Source: a virus (taxonomy: Duplodnaviria; Heunggongvirae; Uroviricota; Caudoviricetes). Taken from it: a DNA stretch of 42,066 nucleotides. Shown piece by piece: positions 1,081 to 28,517 of this stretch. Within the stretch, counting starts at the first letter, position 1. The number at the start of each line of letters is the position of its first letter. The stretch covers positions 1 through 42,066 of the IMG/VR virus record IMGVR_UViG_2579778919_000006, one strand, 5' to 3'. The notes below the pieces were generated by a model. It did no database searches. It had not been told where the DNA came from and was given only the letters and a program-made list of their open reading frames with translations. The position numbers were made by a program, and so were the translations under genes.

Positions 1081-2516
1081 GACCCCTGTTCCTGCTTTAA
1101 AGCCTCTTCCGTTTGTTTCTGTTTCTTTTTCTGATTCCAGATGCTACTCGCTGGCATTTCTACACGAACGCTGACGAACTGATCGGCCGGGATGTCAACC
1201 GGATCGCCATCAGCCAATCCATCACGCTCATTCCTGGCAAATGCTGGAGCCGAAGGATGTTCGCGGTGATAGGTTTTGACCAACACAGAACCATCGGCAT
1301 TAACCTCATAATCCAGCCAAATCAGCGGTTGTTTATTCCGGTCTGTGGGAATCTCAAACCCTCCGTCGATACCGCCCCAGGCAGCGTCTGAATTGAGTGA
1401 TTCACACCCATCAATGAGATATTGGCCTACATCCAGACGAGTGACCGTAACACCTTCTGATTCATCGTTAGTTTCATATCGTCCGTCACCGTAAATCTTC
1501 ACAATTGGTGACGCGATTTTGATAAACCCGTTGCTATCTACGGTTGTGTTGCTTGTATCACGCACTACGGCGAGATTGTACCAGGACTGAGAGTTGGGGT
1601 TATAAACCTTATAACCGAACCCACGTTTACCATTATTGTCGCCATAAAAACCTATTAGCTGCATTCGGGCGGCTTCATCGGCAGAGGTAATATCAATCCA
1701 TGCCCCTAAGGCTCCACCTTCAACCTGGCCAGTAATGAAGCCGGTACTGTTTTTCCAGTAAATGTTCGTCGGTGTATCACCAGGCGCAAACCGTGCTGTC
1801 TTTTGTCTTATGGCTCCAATGTTAGTACAGGCTCCCCAGTAATCTCCGGTGGTTGCCCCCGTTCCGCCATAACGGGTTCCGAGTGGTACCGGATTACCAT
1901 TATCCGAAACAACGACGCCCCATTCGTCTTTTCGTACGACAAGCGCATGATCCCGCGACGGGCCATAGACGATGCTCTGATCTTCCTGGGTAACGAATGT
2001 GCCTAAACCGAGGTTTGTTCGAGCGTCTTCTGCCTTCGTTGCCCCGGTCCCGCCCTGCGCAATAGAAAGCGCAGTAGTGAGTCCTTTCAGCTCCGTGATA
2101 TCGCTGTTTGCCCCCTTTCTGGCAAGTGCACCAATGCCCGGAATATTCACGGAAGCTCCGTTGATGGTAACGGTGATGGTCTGGTTTGCTGAGGTAGTGG
2201 CGAACGTCTCCCACGCGCCAATATTCTCGTCATATTCTTTGATGAGCTGCGACATTGCCTGGGCCAGTCCGTCGACGGAGATAATGTCTGACACCAGAAT
2301 GGCGTATTTCTGGCCGCTCAGCGCCGGAGAAGCTGCAGGCGTTACCGTCATTGACGTGGCGCTATTCACGGATGAAATCTGGAACATCTGAACCGGGTTA
2401 GACATGACAATAATCGTCTGGCCAGCGCGAACCTGGCTGGCCGGTGCAGTCCAGTTTGTACCGGAGCCGGTTGCGGTATTTCCGTTAATAGAGATAGTTC
2501 CGGTGCTATAAATCAT
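1077..2516 (-). CDS. phage tail fibre protein
   Basis: 479 aa, Gly/Thr/Ser/Asn-rich with tail-fibre-like N-terminus MIYSTGTISINGNTATGSG; downstream of J in the tail module; no tail fibre assembly gene follows. Confidence 0.7.
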   Translation of the reverse strand: MIYSTGTISINGNTATGSGTNWTAPASQVRAGQTIIVMSNPVQMFQISSVNSATSMTVTPAASPALSGQKYAILVSDIISVDGLAQAMSQLIKEYDENIGAWETFATTSANQTITVTINGASVNIPGIGALARKGANSDITELKGLTTALSIAQGGTGATKAEDARTNLGLGTFVTQEDQSIVYGPSRDHALVVRKDEWGVVVSDNGNPVPLGTRYGGTGATTGDYWGACTNIGAIRQKTARFAPGDTPTNIYWKNSTGFITGQVEGGALGAWIDITSADEAARMQLIGFYGDNNGKRGFGYKVYNPNSQSWYNLAVVRDTSNTTVDSNGFIKIASPIVKIYGDGRYETNDESEGVTVTRLDVGQYLIDGCESLNSDAAWGGIDGGFEIPTDRNKQPLIWLDYEVNADGSVLVKTYHREHPSAPAFARNERDGLADGDPVDIPADQFVSVRVEMPASSIWNQKKKQKQTEEALKQEQGS

Positions 2517-3026
2517 AACAACTCCTAAATTTAGACAACATGAAGCCCGGAGAGGTATATAACCATCACCAGAAATAATTTCTGAATTGGTTTTTAATAC
2601 ATGTTGGGCAACGCCAGTGTTGGCATAGCTATAGTTGTATCAAATGCCATTGACCACCCACCCAAATAATAATTGCCGACTACTTTATTCCTTTCCGCTA
2701 TGACATTCCAACCTGTCATTACAATTCCTTTATACCTAATATTTCCGTAACCACCAACGTGTCGACAGTTAGCCCCGGTATAAACAATCTGGCAAAATTC
2801 ATCACCAATATTCAGGTTCGCATTGGCGATATTTATTGTCCCATCAAAAATGAATGGCTTCGTGCAAGTAAGAAGACGTTTGCGTTGACGATTGGTTTAT
2901 TCAATCCATCAACTAAAATACCATGTAAACGAATTGCCATGAGTTGTGCCCTTATATAAGATCGGGGTTTACATCTTAAATTATATCCCTATATAGTTGT
3001 TACACACAAACATAAAGGAGTTCGAA

Positions 3027-3305
3027 ATGAAGACTTTAATCTGCGCCATTATCCTTTCTATGACTGCTACTTTTGCTTATGCGACTGGCCCTTCCGGTGG
3101 TACTGGTGGTCCAGGTAATAGTGGCGCTGGTGGCTCATCATTAGGTGGGCATACCGGTGGAGTAAGTAACATTGAGCACCAGACTGTCATCTATGAAGGC
3201 ACTACCGCTGGTAAAGCTAAAGCTGAGTGGATGAAAGGTAAAAAAGTCAAACCTGATTGCTCACCAGCTATGAACCGTGTTGGTTGGTCCGAAGGTTGCA
3301 AATAA
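3027..3305 (+). CDS. small secreted glycine-rich protein (moron)
   Basis: AAGGAG Shine-Dalgarno 7 nt before ATG; signal-peptide-like N-terminus MKTLICAIILSMTATFAYA; Gly/Ser-rich middle; two C-terminal Cys; opposite strand to flanking tail genes. Confidence 0.45.
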   Translation: MKTLICAIILSMTATFAYATGPSGGTGGPGNSGAGGSSLGGHTGGVSNIEHQTVIYEGTTAGKAKAEWMKGKKVKPDCSPAMNRVGWSEGCK

Positions 3306-3307
3306 TT

Positions 3308-3334
3308 AAATAAAGGGCCATAAGGCCCTTTATT
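3308..3334. terminator. bidirectional intrinsic terminator
   Basis: perfect 8-bp stem aaagggcc-ataa-ggcccttt with an A-run on one side and a T-run on the other; sits between convergent J and the secreted-protein gene. Confidence 0.6.
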
Positions 3335-6300
3335 TTATGAGTAAGTAAACGATCCAGAACCTCTTGTTACAATCATTGTTGGACTTCTTAACCATCTATT
3401 AGTAGCACCCTCCTTAAATACGATTTTTGCAGTTACAGTTTCCGCAGTAACACCTTTAAAAGTGGCCATAACTGTACCAGACGTGGACAACATGCCGCCT
3501 TCCGTATTACGAACGGATGTGCCTGCGAATGCGCTTTTAGTAACACCATTCACGGTAATTTCCACCCCTAGTAACATCCCTGGATATTTAGGAACACCAG
3601 AAAGGTTAGCCATGACTGTGATGGTCTTAGTTGTATTAGCCGTATCCTTATAAGTGATTGTACGTGTCATATCGTACGTGCCACCTTCGCCGTATAAATC
3701 GTCAGCAACACCCATGTTGCATACATCACCAATAAAACTAGTAGCTTCTACAGTCCCTTTGAACTTACCGCTTGTTGCTTGTATCTCACCAGTAAATCTA
3801 CCGTCACTAGCATATACTACACCTCTGACGGTCACATTGTTGAATTCAGCATCTCCAGCTTTATTCAACTTCCAACCAGCAGAACCAGCTGCATAGTTGT
3901 TGGACTGGATGTAATTGCCGATTTTGGCGTTCTCAATGGTGCCGTCCTGGATGAAACTGGCCCGGATGAATGTCTGCCCGTTCTGGATCACGAACGGCAA
4001 AGCCACGCTGTTTCCGGCTGCCGTGGTGACGGCGAAGCGGTCAGCCAGGAAGATAACCTGCGACTGCATGCCGGATGGCGTATTCTCCACGCCGATCCCC
4101 ATCCCCGCGGCGTAATACTGACCGTTGCTGGAAACGCCAACCTTGATGTTATACATCGCGCTGAGGTCGCCATTAACGTTGGCTATCGCCTGAGCATTAG
4201 TGGTGATGGCTGAGGTATGCCCGTTCACCGTCGCCGTGATGCTGTTTACCTGCGTGGCCATAGCCTGCTGGTAATCGGAGAACGTCTGGTTCAGGCTGTT
4301 GATGGATGCCTTGTTGCTGTTAACGTCCGTCTGCAGGCTCAGCAGCGAGCGCGCCGTTGCCTCCCTGTCGTTGACAATCACCTCATCAATACGGTCCAGA
4401 TTCGCGCTGTTGCCGGCGACCGATGCAGACAACGTTTTACGCGCGGCTACCTGCGCCAGGTTGCCCTGAATAATTGCGATAGCAGAGTTCTTCACCCCGC
4501 CCGTCATGCCGTCCATAGACACGCTGATGCTGTCTATTCGCTGGCCCAGTGCGGTATCAGCAGTCGCAACAGTCTGCTCAAGCTCTGAGAGAGAAGACGA
4601 CACATCACCGACCGTGCTCGAAAGCTCATTAACACTGGTCTGAACCTGCCCAATGTCCTGCGCGTTTTTTGCGATTTCCTGCGCCTGGAGCTCAAGTTCA
4701 TCGTTGGCCTGTTTGATGTCGTCAGCCATGCCAGCAATTTTTTCGTTGCTGTCCACCGCGTTCTCGATCAGGTCTTTGAACGTATCGGAGTCTTTCATGT
4801 CCTCCAGGATTGCATCGGTGATATCGGATACATCGATGCTGGCCTGCCCGCGCACAAAGTCTGTATACCCTGATTCGTTTCCGCTGCGGTCCACCAGCTG
4901 CGCGCGGTACCAGAAAATTTGCCCAGCCTTTAGGCCCATCTGCTGATATTTGCGCTGCGGGTAAGGCACATCGGCCAGCAGCATGGCATCGTCTTCAGTA
5001 CCGGTCAGGCTGTACTGAATTTCAGTCTTCAGCGTGTCGTCGGTATTCGCCTGGAATCTCCAGTTCAGCTCGATACCGAACACCACGTTTTCAGAGGCGA
5101 TAAAGCCAACCGGCTTCGGTGGATTGCCCACTTTACCCGTCAGCGTTTTCTCTTCTGAATAGCCCCATCCGGATGAAATTTCTGCGGCATTGATTGCGCG
5201 CACCCGCACCAGGTAGCGCCCGGCATAAATCCCCGGGACGTCGAATGACGTGGTGGAGGTGCGCGGCACGTTAACCCAGTTCCCGTCGTTGCGGCGCCAT
5301 TGCGCTTCATAGGCGATAGCGTTCTGCGCCTGGTCCCAGCTCACGCGCATTGTTTCGACGCTGATATTTTGCTGAACCACGGAAAACGAGCTGATCACGA
5401 TATTCGCAGGCGGCGACTGGTTGCCCGGCGGGATCACGCTCACCGGCCGTTGGTCAATGATGGCTCCGGTATCGATACGGGCATATTTATCCGGGTCGTG
5501 CCATGCGCCGGTAATCGAGAAAGTGCCATCATTGTTATCGGAAACGCTGACAACACGATACTGCTGCGCGTAAAGCTCGTCAGATTCAACCACCCAAACA
5601 GCTTCGGCCTGTGGCGTCTCACTGTATGCCGTGGTGACTGTGACTGATTCCCCGTTCACGGCCTGAATGGTCCTGCTCTGCGACGCTCCGGAAGGCAGGT
5701 TGAGAATAAGGCGATCACCTGGTGCTGCATCAGCTACGCGGTCAAGTTTGATAACGCGACCGTTAACGGCGCTGATGCGGCCGCCCATAACCTTTCCGGA
5801 AAGCAGCTCGTCTGCCACGGCGATGATGTAGCCCGGCTGCGGAATGTTTCCGTCCAGCCCGACATCAAACGAAACAACGCGATCCTTGTTATTGGTGAGA
5901 ATACCCCAGCGCCCCTTTCGGTTCGCCTCTGACTGCCTGGTGCAGCCGATGGCTGTCATTTCCAGCTGATTGAAGCCGTACCGCGCCACCAGCGCCTGCT
6001 CAAATACCGGCTCCATCGCGTCGGCATAAGCGTTACCCGGGTCTGACCATGAAACCAGCGCTGTGGTGTAGCGGCTTTTCGTGGTGCTGCTCGAATAGGT
6101 GAAGCGACCGCCAACAACGTTAGCGCGCGTATAGCTGTAATCAACATCGCGCGGCATGTCAGCCAGGGCCACAATCTGATCCCCGCCCCAGTAGGTCATG
6201 CCACGGAAGATAGCGGCAAAATCACGCAGGACTGTGTAGGCGTCGTTCCGGTCCTGAATGTACACGTTGCAGGTATAGCGTGGTTCTGTACCGTTGCCCC

Positions 6301-7279
6301 CTTTGCCGTCTGGTACCATCTGATCACAATACTGAGCAACCTGATAAAGCGTCCATTTATCAATATTCGCAGCGGTCAAACGGTGCCCAAGGCCGAACCG
6401 GTCAGAAACAACCAGGTCGTAAAAAATCCACGCAGGGTTATCCGTCCATGCCCACTTAAACGCACCGGTCCATGTACCGCTATAAGTGCGGGTTTCAGGG
6501 TCGTAGGTATCTGGAACGCGGATAACGCGGCCGCGCGGTTCGCATGAAATTTGAGGAATAGAGCCGTTGAACTGGCTTGAGTCGAATTCGACGTAGAGCA
6601 GCGCGGTGTTCGGGTAGCGCAGTTTGGCGTCAATCACCTCGGTGAAGCTCTGCAGCATCATCGTGTCGCCGATCTTCGCGCTGTTGGCGTCAGAGGTAAT
6701 CTTACGCAGACGTATTGTCCATGTGCTGCCAGCCTGCGGTAAATCGATACGGTGGCTGCGCTCATAACCAGACGTCGTTTTGCCGGTCACGCTGGTATTG
6801 AGTACCGTCTGCCATGTGCCGCCGTCAGTCTGCAGGTCAATCGCATAATTGACCGAGTAACCCACCAGATCGCCGTCGTCTTCCTGTTTGAAAAGCGAGG
6901 GCCATTTAAGACGCAGGCGAACTGCTGAAAGCTGCGTATTGGTAAACGTGCGCGTCCAGGCTGTGGCACTTGATACCTCAGTTCCTACGCTGATCTCGTT
7001 TTCGGTACCGGGAATACCCTGAATATATTTTTGCGCCTGCGTTCCCGCGCGAAACTCCCACGTTACCCCGCTGAAGTTTTGGGAGCCGTCAGCATTCTCC
7101 AGCGCTGTTCCGTCCAGGTAGATATCTTTGCCGGTGAGCTGTCCAGCAAACTCCCCTTCCCCAAGCGCAACGAGGATTTTTGCCTTCGCTACAGATTGCA
7201 GATCATCAGGCTGTTCGGTAGGGGTTCGGGAACTTGAGCTGCCGCCCTTGCGGCCTTTTAACACTTTATCTGTAGCCAT
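3335..7279 (-). CDS. J: tail tip / host specificity protein J
   Basis: 1314 aa; N-terminal and central regions resemble lambda gpJ as I recall it; gene order after I; long divergent C-terminal region. Confidence 0.9.
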   Translation of the reverse strand: MATDKVLKGRKGGSSSSRTPTEQPDDLQSVAKAKILVALGEGEFAGQLTGKDIYLDGTALENADGSQNFSGVTWEFRAGTQAQKYIQGIPGTENEISVGTEVSSATAWTRTFTNTQLSAVRLRLKWPSLFKQEDDGDLVGYSVNYAIDLQTDGGTWQTVLNTSVTGKTTSGYERSHRIDLPQAGSTWTIRLRKITSDANSAKIGDTMMLQSFTEVIDAKLRYPNTALLYVEFDSSQFNGSIPQISCEPRGRVIRVPDTYDPETRTYSGTWTGAFKWAWTDNPAWIFYDLVVSDRFGLGHRLTAANIDKWTLYQVAQYCDQMVPDGKGGNGTEPRYTCNVYIQDRNDAYTVLRDFAAIFRGMTYWGGDQIVALADMPRDVDYSYTRANVVGGRFTYSSSTTKSRYTTALVSWSDPGNAYADAMEPVFEQALVARYGFNQLEMTAIGCTRQSEANRKGRWGILTNNKDRVVSFDVGLDGNIPQPGYIIAVADELLSGKVMGGRISAVNGRVIKLDRVADAAPGDRLILNLPSGASQSRTIQAVNGESVTVTTAYSETPQAEAVWVVESDELYAQQYRVVSVSDNNDGTFSITGAWHDPDKYARIDTGAIIDQRPVSVIPPGNQSPPANIVISSFSVVQQNISVETMRVSWDQAQNAIAYEAQWRRNDGNWVNVPRTSTTSFDVPGIYAGRYLVRVRAINAAEISSGWGYSEEKTLTGKVGNPPKPVGFIASENVVFGIELNWRFQANTDDTLKTEIQYSLTGTEDDAMLLADVPYPQRKYQQMGLKAGQIFWYRAQLVDRSGNESGYTDFVRGQASIDVSDITDAILEDMKDSDTFKDLIENAVDSNEKIAGMADDIKQANDELELQAQEIAKNAQDIGQVQTSVNELSSTVGDVSSSLSELEQTVATADTALGQRIDSISVSMDGMTGGVKNSAIAIIQGNLAQVAARKTLSASVAGNSANLDRIDEVIVNDREATARSLLSLQTDVNSNKASINSLNQTFSDYQQAMATQVNSITATVNGHTSAITTNAQAIANVNGDLSAMYNIKVGVSSNGQYYAAGMGIGVENTPSGMQSQVIFLADRFAVTTAAGNSVALPFVIQNGQTFIRASFIQDGTIENAKIGNYIQSNNYAAGSAGWKLNKAGDAEFNNVTVRGVVYASDGRFTGEIQATSGKFKGTVEATSFIGDVCNMGVADDLYGEGGTYDMTRTITYKDTANTTKTITVMANLSGVPKYPGMLLGVEITVNGVTKSAFAGTSVRNTEGGMLSTSGTVMATFKGVTAETVTAKIVFKEGATNRWLRSPTMIVTRGSGSFTYS

Positions 7280-27594: not shown

Positions 27595-27743
27595 AATGAG
27601 TTGACTATTTGTAAGGTAGGTGTGAGTAAGACTTATGCTCAGAGGTGAAGCTGTATCGGCTGATTCACTATCGGTCCAGGAGAACCACCGGGCATTCAGT
27701 TACTTCCCACAACTCAAAGCGTAGCAGCAGTTTGCAAAACCAT

Positions 27744-27771
27744 AAAAAAAGGCCTGCGTTTAATGGCAGGC
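27744..27771 (-). terminator. intrinsic terminator in the late leader
   Basis: 6-bp stem gcctgc/gcaggc followed on the minus strand by T7. Confidence 0.55.
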
Positions 27772-27988
27772 TCTCAAGGAATTTGAAACTTGTATTGTAG
27801 TTGTCATGGTGCCGGGTGCCTCCCGGTGACTCTACTCCAGCCAGCAAAGTCGCGCGCATACCTGCAGATAGCAGTTGGCTGGAACGCCCTTTCGCTTAGA
27901 AAGGATTCACCACAGAAATAAATTACGCCGAACTTATTCCTGCAGTCAATGAGATTAGCCATTGCTTCCTGATGGTTGTCTTACAAAT

Positions 27989-28208: not shown

Positions 28209-28283
<75 letters not shown>

Positions 28284-28286
28284 ATA

Positions 28287-28362
<76 letters not shown>

Positions 28363-28364
28363 AG

Positions 28365-28438
28365 TGGTCCGCCACCGGAGCCTCGAACCCCGTACCACAA
28401 CACCTGGGTTGCCGCTCTTCCCGATGAGCTAGTGGCGG
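28365..28438 (-). tRNA. tRNA-like element, anticodon unresolved (possible degenerate tRNA)
   Basis: acceptor, D and T arms fold (T-loop TTCGAGG, 3' ACCA) but the best anticodon-arm pairing GCAAC/GTTGT leaves a 6-nt loop. Confidence 0.45.
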
Positions 28439-28440
28439 TC

Positions 28441-28517
28441 TGGTGGCCCTTGCTGGACTTGAACCAGCGACCGGGCGATTATGAGTCGCACGCTCTAACC
28501 AACTGAGCTAAAGGGCC
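28441..28517 (-). tRNA. tRNA with CAU anticodon (Met or Ile2-lysidine type)
   Basis: reverse complement GGCCCTTTAGCTCAGTTGGTTAGAGC...; anticodon loop CTCATAA; T-arm GGTTCAAGTCC; 3' CCA. Confidence 0.75.

Follow-up and report, generated by a model that had tools for sequence, protein, structure and literature searches.

A small gene convergent with J encodes a predicted exported protein, a candidate superinfection-exclusion factor of lambdoid prophages and virulent siphoviruses

In a 42,066-nucleotide stretch of DNA from a Caudoviricetes virus (IMG/VR record IMGVR_UViG_2579778919_000006, positions 1 to 42,066; hereafter the window), a small gene lies between the tail-tip/host-specificity gene J and the tail-fiber genes and encodes a protein of 92 amino acids (aa) with a predicted signal peptide. 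As judged from DNA comparisons, this gene is exchanged as a cassette with the receptor-binding C-terminal tip of J, with which it forms a horizontally moved host-recognition module. We place at about one half the probability that its product is a periplasmic superinfection-exclusion or receptor-masking factor belonging to this exchangeable module. The evidence comes from the position of the gene in three phage lineages, its expression signals, the conservation of the encoded protein, and its co-inheritance with the J tip.

Occurrence and position of the gene

Genomic contexts were drawn from public assemblies, IMG/VR, complete Escherichia coli genomes, and GenBank phages. They include lambdoid prophage loci (the window, ET245, CUPF06, and L013), loci from Queuovirinae of ~60 kb (PD328, JenK1, L011, L012, and L022–L029), and loci from T1-like phages of Klebsiella and Enterobacter of 48–50 kb (L003, L006, L014–L017, PMBT64, and N5822). 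The closest copies of the window gene reside in virulent Nonagvirus phages and not in prophages, with 97% identity for PD328 and 81–87% identity for JenK1, HdK1, HdSG1, and ESCO3 (tblastn). PD328 and JenK1 have the small gene between J and the side tail fiber gene (stf), in opposite orientation to them, exactly as in the window. Across 25 phage loci the gene is convergent with J, the partner in PMBT64 and N5822 being the small/fiber gene that follows J, and the intergenic gap measures 27–40 bp in 24 of the 25. The convergent position beside J or the receptor-binding gene is thus invariant across the three phage lineages.

Two scans of genome contigs were also performed, the first of which returned nothing and the second of which returned one contig among 185,579 species-representative genomes. 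This 2.6-kb contig (L035, positions 841–1116; NZ_MPDK01000063.1, from the Sulfoacidibacillus thermotolerans assembly) encodes a protein 97% identical to the window protein. The assembled organism is an acidophilic Firmicute, and the contig is almost certainly a coliphage contaminant.

Gene structure and expression signals

An earlier note on the window, made from the sequence alone, had described a 93-aa open reading frame (ORF) beginning at 2997 on the strand opposite to all surrounding tail genes. The ORF is real and its orientation is as described, J and the tail-fiber gene both being on the minus strand (Table 1), but its product is 92 aa long (93 codons with the stop) and its start lies at 3027. 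The frame is open from stop to stop over 2997..3305 (+), the ATG at 3027 is the plausible start within it, and in the alignment all of the homologues begin at the MK encoded there. A TTG start at 2997 was rejected, as it lacks a Shine-Dalgarno sequence, would bury the signal peptide, and disagrees with the start of the homologues.

The near-consensus Shine-Dalgarno sequence claimed by the same note is present (AAGGAG, 3015–3020), and the diverged homologues all have a strong one. Upstream of it lies a putative sigma-70-like promoter, a consensus match only. Promoter-like sites occur at a comparable distance in modules that have diverged in sequence, with the -10 element ending ~28–34 nt before the ATG (TTGACA-17-TATGGT in L024 and TTGACA-17-TATATT in L029, with further examples in L006 and L014).

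At its other end the gene shares with J the perfect bidirectional terminator that had been proposed. The hairpin has a perfect 12-bp stem and a 4-nt loop, begins 2 nt past the stop codon of the small gene, and ends on the first base of the J stop codon, and U-runs follow the stem on both strands. Its folding free energy (dG) is -19.3 kcal/mol on the plus strand and -18.4 kcal/mol on the minus strand (z = -5.0 and -5.6, respectively), and none of 200 shuffled sequences was as stable. In all 17 distinct intergenic sequences, a hairpin rich in GC, with A- and T-runs at its sides, separates the small gene from J, the stems themselves varying among loci (GGGCC, GGCGCTC, GGGCGC, GGGAGC, GGAGCC, GGGGTC, and others). 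Because promoter-like site, Shine-Dalgarno sequence, ORF, and terminator recur in diverged loci, the structure of the unit is regarded as conserved, also in phages that cannot lysogenize. From these signals the gene is read as an autonomous opposite-strand unit running from a putative promoter to a terminator.

The encoded protein and its family

The window protein consists of MKTLICAIILSMTATFAYA followed by TGPSGGTGGPGNSGAGGSSLGGHTG and GVSNIEHQTVIYEGTTAGKAKAEWMKGKKVKPDCSPAMNRVGWSEGCK. It matches the profile hidden Markov model of phrog_2243 (E = 5.9e-30, residues 1–92 against positions 3–86 of 87), a family that carries the label "unknown function" in PHROGs. Searches of Pfam (E <= 1), NCBIfam, and PADLOC returned no match for the protein. 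A word-indexed protein search yielded 57 relatives, every one of them labeled hypothetical, and when 1.84 billion cluster representatives were searched exhaustively with a profile, only 10 clusters and no distant annotated relatives came up, from which it follows that the family is very small.

The N-terminal signal peptide noticed earlier is well supported as a prediction, with a basic n-region, a hydrophobic h-region (12-residue mean Kyte-Doolittle hydropathy of 2.24), and A-x-A at positions -3/-1 in the window protein. The basic n-region and hydrophobic h-region are retained in all 61 full-length family members scanned, despite turnover of the sequence itself. Cleavage sites of the A-x-A (small-x-small) type were read by eye from the alignment, the automatic cleavage rule being crude, and by that reading such a site usually follows the h-region across the family. 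A lipobox was found in none of the 61 members scanned, the window protein included. Where the earlier note spoke of a secreted protein, predicted export therefore stands but "exported to the periplasm" is the better description.

The Gly/Ser-rich core of that description is also present (13 Gly and 4 Ser in residues 20–44), but it is a dispensable linker and not the conserved part of the protein. The stretch is confined to one E. coli sub-clade and most of the family is without it; the linker seems dispensable because linker-less forms of 77 aa accompany the same J tip. Among otherwise near-identical homologues (P0001–P0036) the length of the linker varies, giving proteins of 84, 88, 89, 91, 92, 93, 94, and 96 aa, which is consistent with slippage in GGN-rich DNA.

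What is conserved is a C-terminal domain of 48 residues, which contains the two cysteines that had been pointed out. C91 is invariant in the family, C78 is at least 90% conserved, and the two are spaced by ~12 residues. AlphaFold2 predicted helices at residues ~49–58, 60–69, and 80–84 with low confidence. On this basis, the window protein is probably cleaved by signal peptidase I and a C78–C91 disulfide probably closes the domain, and the mature product would be a soluble periplasmic protein of ~73 residues made up of a flexible linker and the 48-residue domain.

Selection on this domain was examined by counting codon differences. Between the window and PD328, the 48 codons differ by 10 synonymous and no non-synonymous changes. 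Relative to the Klebsiella-type homologues L003 and L006, the proportion of synonymous differences (pS) is 0.84–0.87, which is saturated, and the proportion of non-synonymous differences (pN) is 0.10–0.13. The pN/pS ratio in the conserved domain is 0–0.16. These figures identify a real gene on which purifying selection is strong.

Exchange of the gene with the tip of J

Collinear comparisons delimit the segment that has been exchanged. The window and PD328 J proteins are ~20–25% identical over most of their length, 72% identical over the last 286 residues, and 90% identical over the last ~190. Compared with HK97 DNA, the window shows 96% identity over positions 6410 to 3726 of J, then loses similarity and regains it at 2597, leaving a replaced block at 2598–3725. 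Compared with the Nissle 1917 prophage, the dissimilar block spans 2941–3725 and comprises the J tip and the small gene. The reverse pattern is obtained with the virulent phages: PD328 and L011 share the block 2854–3955 with the window at 92–94%, against ~22% identity in what remains of J, and JenK1 and L012 share only 2854–3305 (the 5' end of stf and the small gene) together with the hinge of J at 3722–3955, the tip between them being replaced. In complete E. coli genomes, at least 80% of the block is present in 3 of 5426, with the full block in two.

Two alleles of the tip can be distinguished, and each goes with its own forms of the small protein. Tip type A is accompanied by the 92-, 88-, or 77-aa form at 11 of 11 loci, and tip type B by the 96-aa form at three of three (JenK1, L012, and the CUPF06 prophage); both pairings are found in lambdoid as well as Nonagvirus backgrounds. 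The J hinge is shared with PD328 (92%), JenK1 (78%), 9g (83%), HK97, and Nissle, and the hinge and the 5' end of stf would be the obvious sites for homologous exchange.

The window has an island of low G+C content at 2500–3950 (38–47%, vs 53–60% in the flanks), which coincides with the block shared with Queuovirinae. Downstream of the stf 5' end at 2854–2941, the frame breaks after 35 codons and an out-of-frame ORF is found within 2594–2941 (-), which in relatives bears the RefSeq label "DUF6453 family protein". ET245 has the same break and the DNA of Nissle is nearly identical here, so that the arrangement is taken as an inherited recombination scar or frameshifted gene and not as a sequencing error. 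The J gene of the ET245 prophage is ~900 bp longer than that of the window owing to three extra tandem copies of a ~290-bp segment, which is single-copy in the window (L009 7991–8865 vs window 4221–4537).

Other occupants of the interval between J and stf

Relatives of the window carry different genes in the same interval, or none. HK97 has no gene in this slot. In KurtStettler (Bas22), 9g, and the Nissle prophage, an HK97-like J tip is accompanied by a convergent gene for a 77-aa lipoprotein of phrog_12984 with the lipobox L(T/S)AC. This lipoprotein resembles the window protein in slot and orientation, in the intergenic region shared before stf, and in being swapped together with the J tip; it differs in being a lipoprotein and in its LamB-type tip partner. 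KurtStettler has been shown experimentally to depend on LamB (PMC8594841), which makes the phrog_12984 protein, apparently uncharacterized, a candidate for an exclusion factor directed at LamB. The C-termini of the two families share a faint "R[IV]G..x.C" resemblance, which is not significant.

In L030 (1925–3246), a close prophage relative, a shorter J is followed by genes of 100 and 224 aa and then cor, all on the J strand and preceding the same tail-fiber gene. Cor is annotated there as "phage exclusion lipoprotein Cor", and this segment is a different host-recognition module, probably of FhuA type, in the same interval. The empty slot of HK97, the phrog_12984 lipoprotein, and Cor lead us to regard the J-to-stf interval as a slot whose occupants are small exported proteins, replaced when the receptor-binding module is replaced.

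Homologues on conjugative plasmids

A 75-aa homologue (~50% identical) is encoded by 63 plasmids in PLSDB. Conjugative MOBP/MPF_T plasmids, IncX1 and others, are among them (pEC4115, for example), and the IncX1 carriers come from E. coli, Salmonella, Citrobacter, and Shigella. Wherever an upstream gene was visible (four contexts), the homologue lies 29–30 bp downstream of that gene and in the same direction. The upstream gene is assigned to the YadA-anchor (trimeric autotransporter) type by annotation or Pfam in two of these four. The pair stands at the end of the transfer-gene block, after the genes for the type IV secretion system coupling protein and TrbM/KikA. A binding domain common to the plasmid YadA-like protein and J was considered and ruled out, the two showing no similarity, and a literature search on the role of the IncX YadA-like gene found nothing. 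The plasmid context would suit either receptor masking or surface exclusion encoded by the plasmid, or some role that involves the adhesin.

Proposed function and its alternatives

For small siphoviruses, the locus downstream of gpJ has been described as encoding receptor-binding proteins and their cognate exclusion proteins (BASEL 2021; PMC8594841, PMC11990801), and JenK1, HdK1, and HdSG1 were singled out as carrying a receptor-binding module matched to no receptor (PMC8594841). These three phages are among the named carriers of the small gene. For JenK1, HdK1, HdSG1, PD328, and ESCO3, the literature yielded nothing on receptors beyond the BASEL statement, and the main text of a 2026 receptor-prediction preprint does not mention these phages. 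An assignment of the receptor from J-tip similarity was likewise ruled out by the low identities involved: the nearest characterized tips (HK97, 9g, and KurtStettler; LamB) are only 32–39% identical in the tip proper, and the tips partnered with the small gene are 17–42% identical to each other.

Characterized exclusion factors of this kind include Llp of T5 and Rtp45 of Rtp, lipoproteins of ~6–8 kDa that bind FhuA or LptD on the periplasmic face and, by an allosteric effect, close the surface loops to which the phage protein would bind (PMC9586334, PMC12685063); virulent phages use such factors against the loss of progeny on debris (PMC11990801). The window protein is similar in being a small exported protein (~6–8 kDa when mature), in being encoded beside a receptor-binding gene or domain, and in occurring in virulent phages too. 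It is different in having no lipobox and a predicted soluble form, in being partnered with the C-terminus of J instead of a separate receptor-binding protein, and in its lack of sequence similarity to any chain in the PDB. Cor (T1, phi80, N15, and HK022-type phages; FhuA) offers a second comparison, as it occupies the same interval in L030 and is an exported protein of 77 aa with a cysteine pair and a C-terminal ...CK; unlike the window protein, it is a lipoprotein (LTGC lipobox) whose gene points the same way as J and comes after two additional genes for putative receptor-binding proteins. The small size of the window protein, its predicted export by the Sec pathway, and its location beside a receptor-binding gene at 25 of 25 loci are all features of receptor-linked exclusion factors. 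With regard to co-variation, the gene is swapped against LamB- and Cor-type modules, yet the family accompanies many dissimilar J tips. The gene probably encodes a receptor-linked exclusion factor of a new kind that is not a lipoprotein.

We infer periplasmic residence, an exclusion function, and the receptor of J as the target, and the following mechanism is proposed. The Sec pathway would export the small protein and signal peptidase I would cut it to give a soluble periplasmic protein. From the periplasm, the mature protein would target the outer-membrane receptor that the adjacent J tip recognizes, and the masked receptor would no longer allow related phages to adsorb or inject. In a lysogen, superinfection would be blocked; in the lytic cycle, progeny would not be lost on infected cells and debris. 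The promoter-like sites at conserved distance would permit expression both early in lytic infection and from the prophage.

A number of observations weigh against a receptor-masking function. The exclusion factors characterized at this locus are all lipoproteins, and the window protein is not. Homology to the known or candidate factors was not detected: a sequence-profile search of the PDB, which included the chains of Llp, Rtp45, and T4 Sp, gave only noise, and hhalign probabilities were 3% for Cor of L030 against the window family, with no NCBIfam match, and 1.5% for the phrog_12984 lipoprotein. Structure prediction did not help, since two AlphaFold2 runs (alignments of 22 and 23 sequences) reached a predicted local distance difference test score (pLDDT) of only ~55, with values below 50 in the linker, and a Foldseek search of the PDB with the resulting model came back empty; for these reasons no inference was drawn from fold. 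The partner J tips, at the pairwise identities given above, are no closer to one another than to the LamB type. JenK1 and PD328 have near-identical small genes and J tips that are only 21% identical, a swap of the tip without a swap of the small gene, so that a strict pairing of one tip with one factor is not evident. The empty slot of HK97 indicates that such a factor is dispensable. Finally, the plasmid homologues adjoin a YadA-like adhesin and not a phage tail gene, and it is mainly on their account that exclusion is not rated higher. The dissimilarity of the tips could be reconciled with receptor masking if all of them bind one receptor, with variable surface loops presented to the phage and a conserved periplasmic face presented to the small protein.

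A broader form of the proposal is improbable in our estimate. It would make the family a new class of soluble, non-lipidated periplasmic receptor-masking factors directed at a so far unrecognized outer-membrane receptor of Enterobacteriaceae, to which the J tips of JenK1, HdK1, HdSG1, PD328, and the window would bind. The same factor would be common to temperate lambdoid phages, virulent Queuovirinae, Klebsiella T1-like phages, and IncX1 plasmids, serving the last, together with the YadA-like adhesin, in surface exclusion or defense against phages, as one exclusion currency.

Exclusion might also act after adsorption and independently of the receptor, through a block of tail-tip penetration, passage through the peptidoglycan, or the DNA channel, in the manner of T4 Sp or HK97 gp15. 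T4 Sp is a soluble periplasmic protein that mediates superinfection exclusion; like it, the window protein is small, predicted to be soluble and not lipid-anchored, and would lose a signal peptide by cleavage. The occurrence of the same domain with very different J tips, and its retention through the tip swap between JenK1 and PD328, would be expected of such a factor. Sp is nevertheless unlike the window protein in sequence, as the PDB search indicated, and in genomic context, and its target, the gp5 tail lysozyme, has no counterpart in these siphoviruses. The tape-measure and tail-tip machineries of the lambdoid, Queuovirinae, and T1-like carriers are unrelated and offer no obvious common target, and relatives with LamB-type tips have a different exported protein in place of this one and have not retained the gene. 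We regard a post-adsorption block as unlikely.

The earlier note had seen in the gene the layout of a lysogen-expressed moron, in the interval where lambda carries lom. Part of that description holds. The gene is a self-contained unit with its own promoter-like site and terminator, it is present, absent, or replaced among collinear relatives, its GC content is deviant (low), and it is absent from HK97 at this site; lom- and bor-type morons of lambda are similarly autonomous units by the late operon between J and the tail-fiber genes with a patchy distribution among relatives. A prophage-expressed periplasmic or secreted factor of benefit to the host (in envelope stress, adhesion, or virulence), unrelated to adsorption, would also fit the stable presence of homologues on IncX1 conjugative plasmids beside a surface adhesin. 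What does not hold is the view of it as a conversion gene comparable to lom and specific to lysogeny. Strictly virulent phages (Queuovirinae and T1-like phages of Klebsiella), for which lysogenic conversion has no meaning, make up most of the carriers, and in prophages the gene is rare (3 of 5426 complete E. coli genomes). The gene keeps to the receptor-binding end of the tail operon in all phage loci, lies on the strand opposite to J, and is linked to the J tip. The protein has no similarity to Lom/Ail and no Pfam or NCBIfam match, shows no beta-barrel by the Pfam search, and at 92 aa is too small for one. Occurrence in virulent phages at the same convergent position and travel with the C-terminus of J argue that the role of the gene is tied to phage host recognition and not to lysogenic conversion, which we consider a doubtful explanation.

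Some trimeric autotransporters have small dedicated partners, and the four plasmid contexts, with the homologue closely downstream of and co-directional with the YadA-like gene (a YadA anchor being recognized in two), suggest a periplasmic helper for the outer-membrane insertion or display of a surface protein. This is quite implausible, as no autotransporter is encoded by the phages that carry the gene, a periplasmic helper would never encounter J, which is assembled in the cytoplasm, and transcription of the small gene in phages is separate from that of the tail genes and runs in the opposite direction. The protein is least of all likely to be a secreted bacteriocin- or microcin-like peptide resembling colicin V or microcin L, a reading that its size, Gly-rich stretch, and C-terminal cysteine pair might invite, as it has a Sec-type signal peptide and no double-glycine leader, is flanked by J and tail-fiber genes with no immunity or ABC-exporter genes nearby, belongs to a family of which most members have no Gly-rich stretch, and matched nothing in Pfam, NCBIfam, or PADLOC.

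Other features of the window

The features that define the locus, together with the plasmid homologues and the phrog_12984 lipoproteins, are listed in Table 1. Elsewhere in the window, at 28209–28517 and 27740–27946 (-), four transfer RNA (tRNA)-like genes adjoin a match to the small RNA (sRNA) family STnc100. Three of the tRNA-like genes are Gly-TCC, Thr-TGT, and Met-CAT, and the fourth has a two-base anticodon according to ARAGORN and was left unscored by Rfam. The window-wide Rfam scan returned nothing relevant to the J-to-stf locus, and the prophage sRNA svsR was set aside after its paper proved irrelevant to this locus. The left end of the window encodes an S24/UmuD-like peptidase (1–390, -) and a DinI-like protein (~715–981, +), and the Nissle prophage has the same S24/UmuD-like and DinI-like genes beyond its tail-fiber genes.

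Table 1. Coordinates of the small gene, its signals, the neighboring J and tail-fiber features, and related genes in other contexts. Positions refer to the window unless another context is named.
Feature	Position	Strand	Details
Small exported-protein gene	3027..3305	+	ATG 3027, TAA 3303-3305; 92 aa + stop; phrog_2243 member
Signal peptide, residues 1-19 (MKTLICAIILSMTATFAYA)	3027..3083	+	Predicted signal peptidase I cleavage between AYA and TG
Gly/Ser-rich linker, residues 20-44	3084..3158	+	13 Gly + 4 Ser; alignments A1, A2
Conserved 48-residue domain	3159..3302	+	GVSNIExQTxIYExTxxGK...EW.KG[KR]...C(x12)C, C78 + C91; invariant alignment columns
Shine-Dalgarno AAGGAG	3015-3020	+	6 nt 5' of ATG; read from sequence
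Putative sigma-70-like promoter, TTTACA-18 nt-TATAGT	2968..2997	+	10/12 in consensus scan; consensus match only
Bidirectional intrinsic terminator hairpin of small gene and J	3308..3335	both	Stems 3308-3319/3324-3335
Tail-tip/host-specificity gene J, 1314 aa	3335..7279	-	Pfam FNIII-A_GpJ, Phage-tail_3, Phage_Tail_Tip
J receptor-binding C-terminal tip, type A allele, ~last 130 codons	3335..3725	-	89-90% identical to PD328 tip
J hinge (…AGSAGWKLNKAGDAE…GEIQATSGKFKGTVEA), left recombination flank	3726..3955	-	Common to both phage groups
First 29 codons of Nonagvirus-type stf, right recombination flank	2854..2941	-	92-97% identical to PD328, JenK1, and 9g stf 5' ends
Tail-fiber gene, 479 aa	1077..2516	-	ORF list; start collinear with HK97 stf
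Plasmid homologue, L008 (pEC4115, NC_011351; WP_000855411)	6001-6228
Plasmid homologue, L032	3501-3728
Plasmid homologue, L033	3501-3728
Plasmid homologue, L004	604-831
phrog_12984 lipoprotein, Nissle 1917 prophage (L010)	6506-6739
phrog_12984 lipoprotein, 9g (L019)	3054-3287
phrog_12984 lipoprotein, KurtStettler/Bas22 (L034)	1752-1985

Significance

Should the protein have no part in phage exclusion, the family would still be that of an unexplained, very narrowly distributed, and strongly constrained exported protein. The locus is in either case a clear example, as read from the comparisons above, of a host-recognition cassette of ~1.1 kb (J tip, exported protein, and stf 5' end) that has moved between lambdoid and Queuovirinae phages, and the J-tip module within it is mobile between temperate prophages of E. 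coli and virulent phages that are candidates for therapeutic use. If the proposed function is correct, the small protein would provide a direct handle on the receptor of the J-tip module that BASEL 2021 could not assign. Receptor-linked exclusion factors would then not need to be lipoproteins, which would call for a broader scope both in genome searches and in receptor-prediction models that use the "accessory proteins" beside gpJ. Strains with the gene on a prophage or an IncX1 plasmid could, in that event, be resistant to a whole set of lytic phages.

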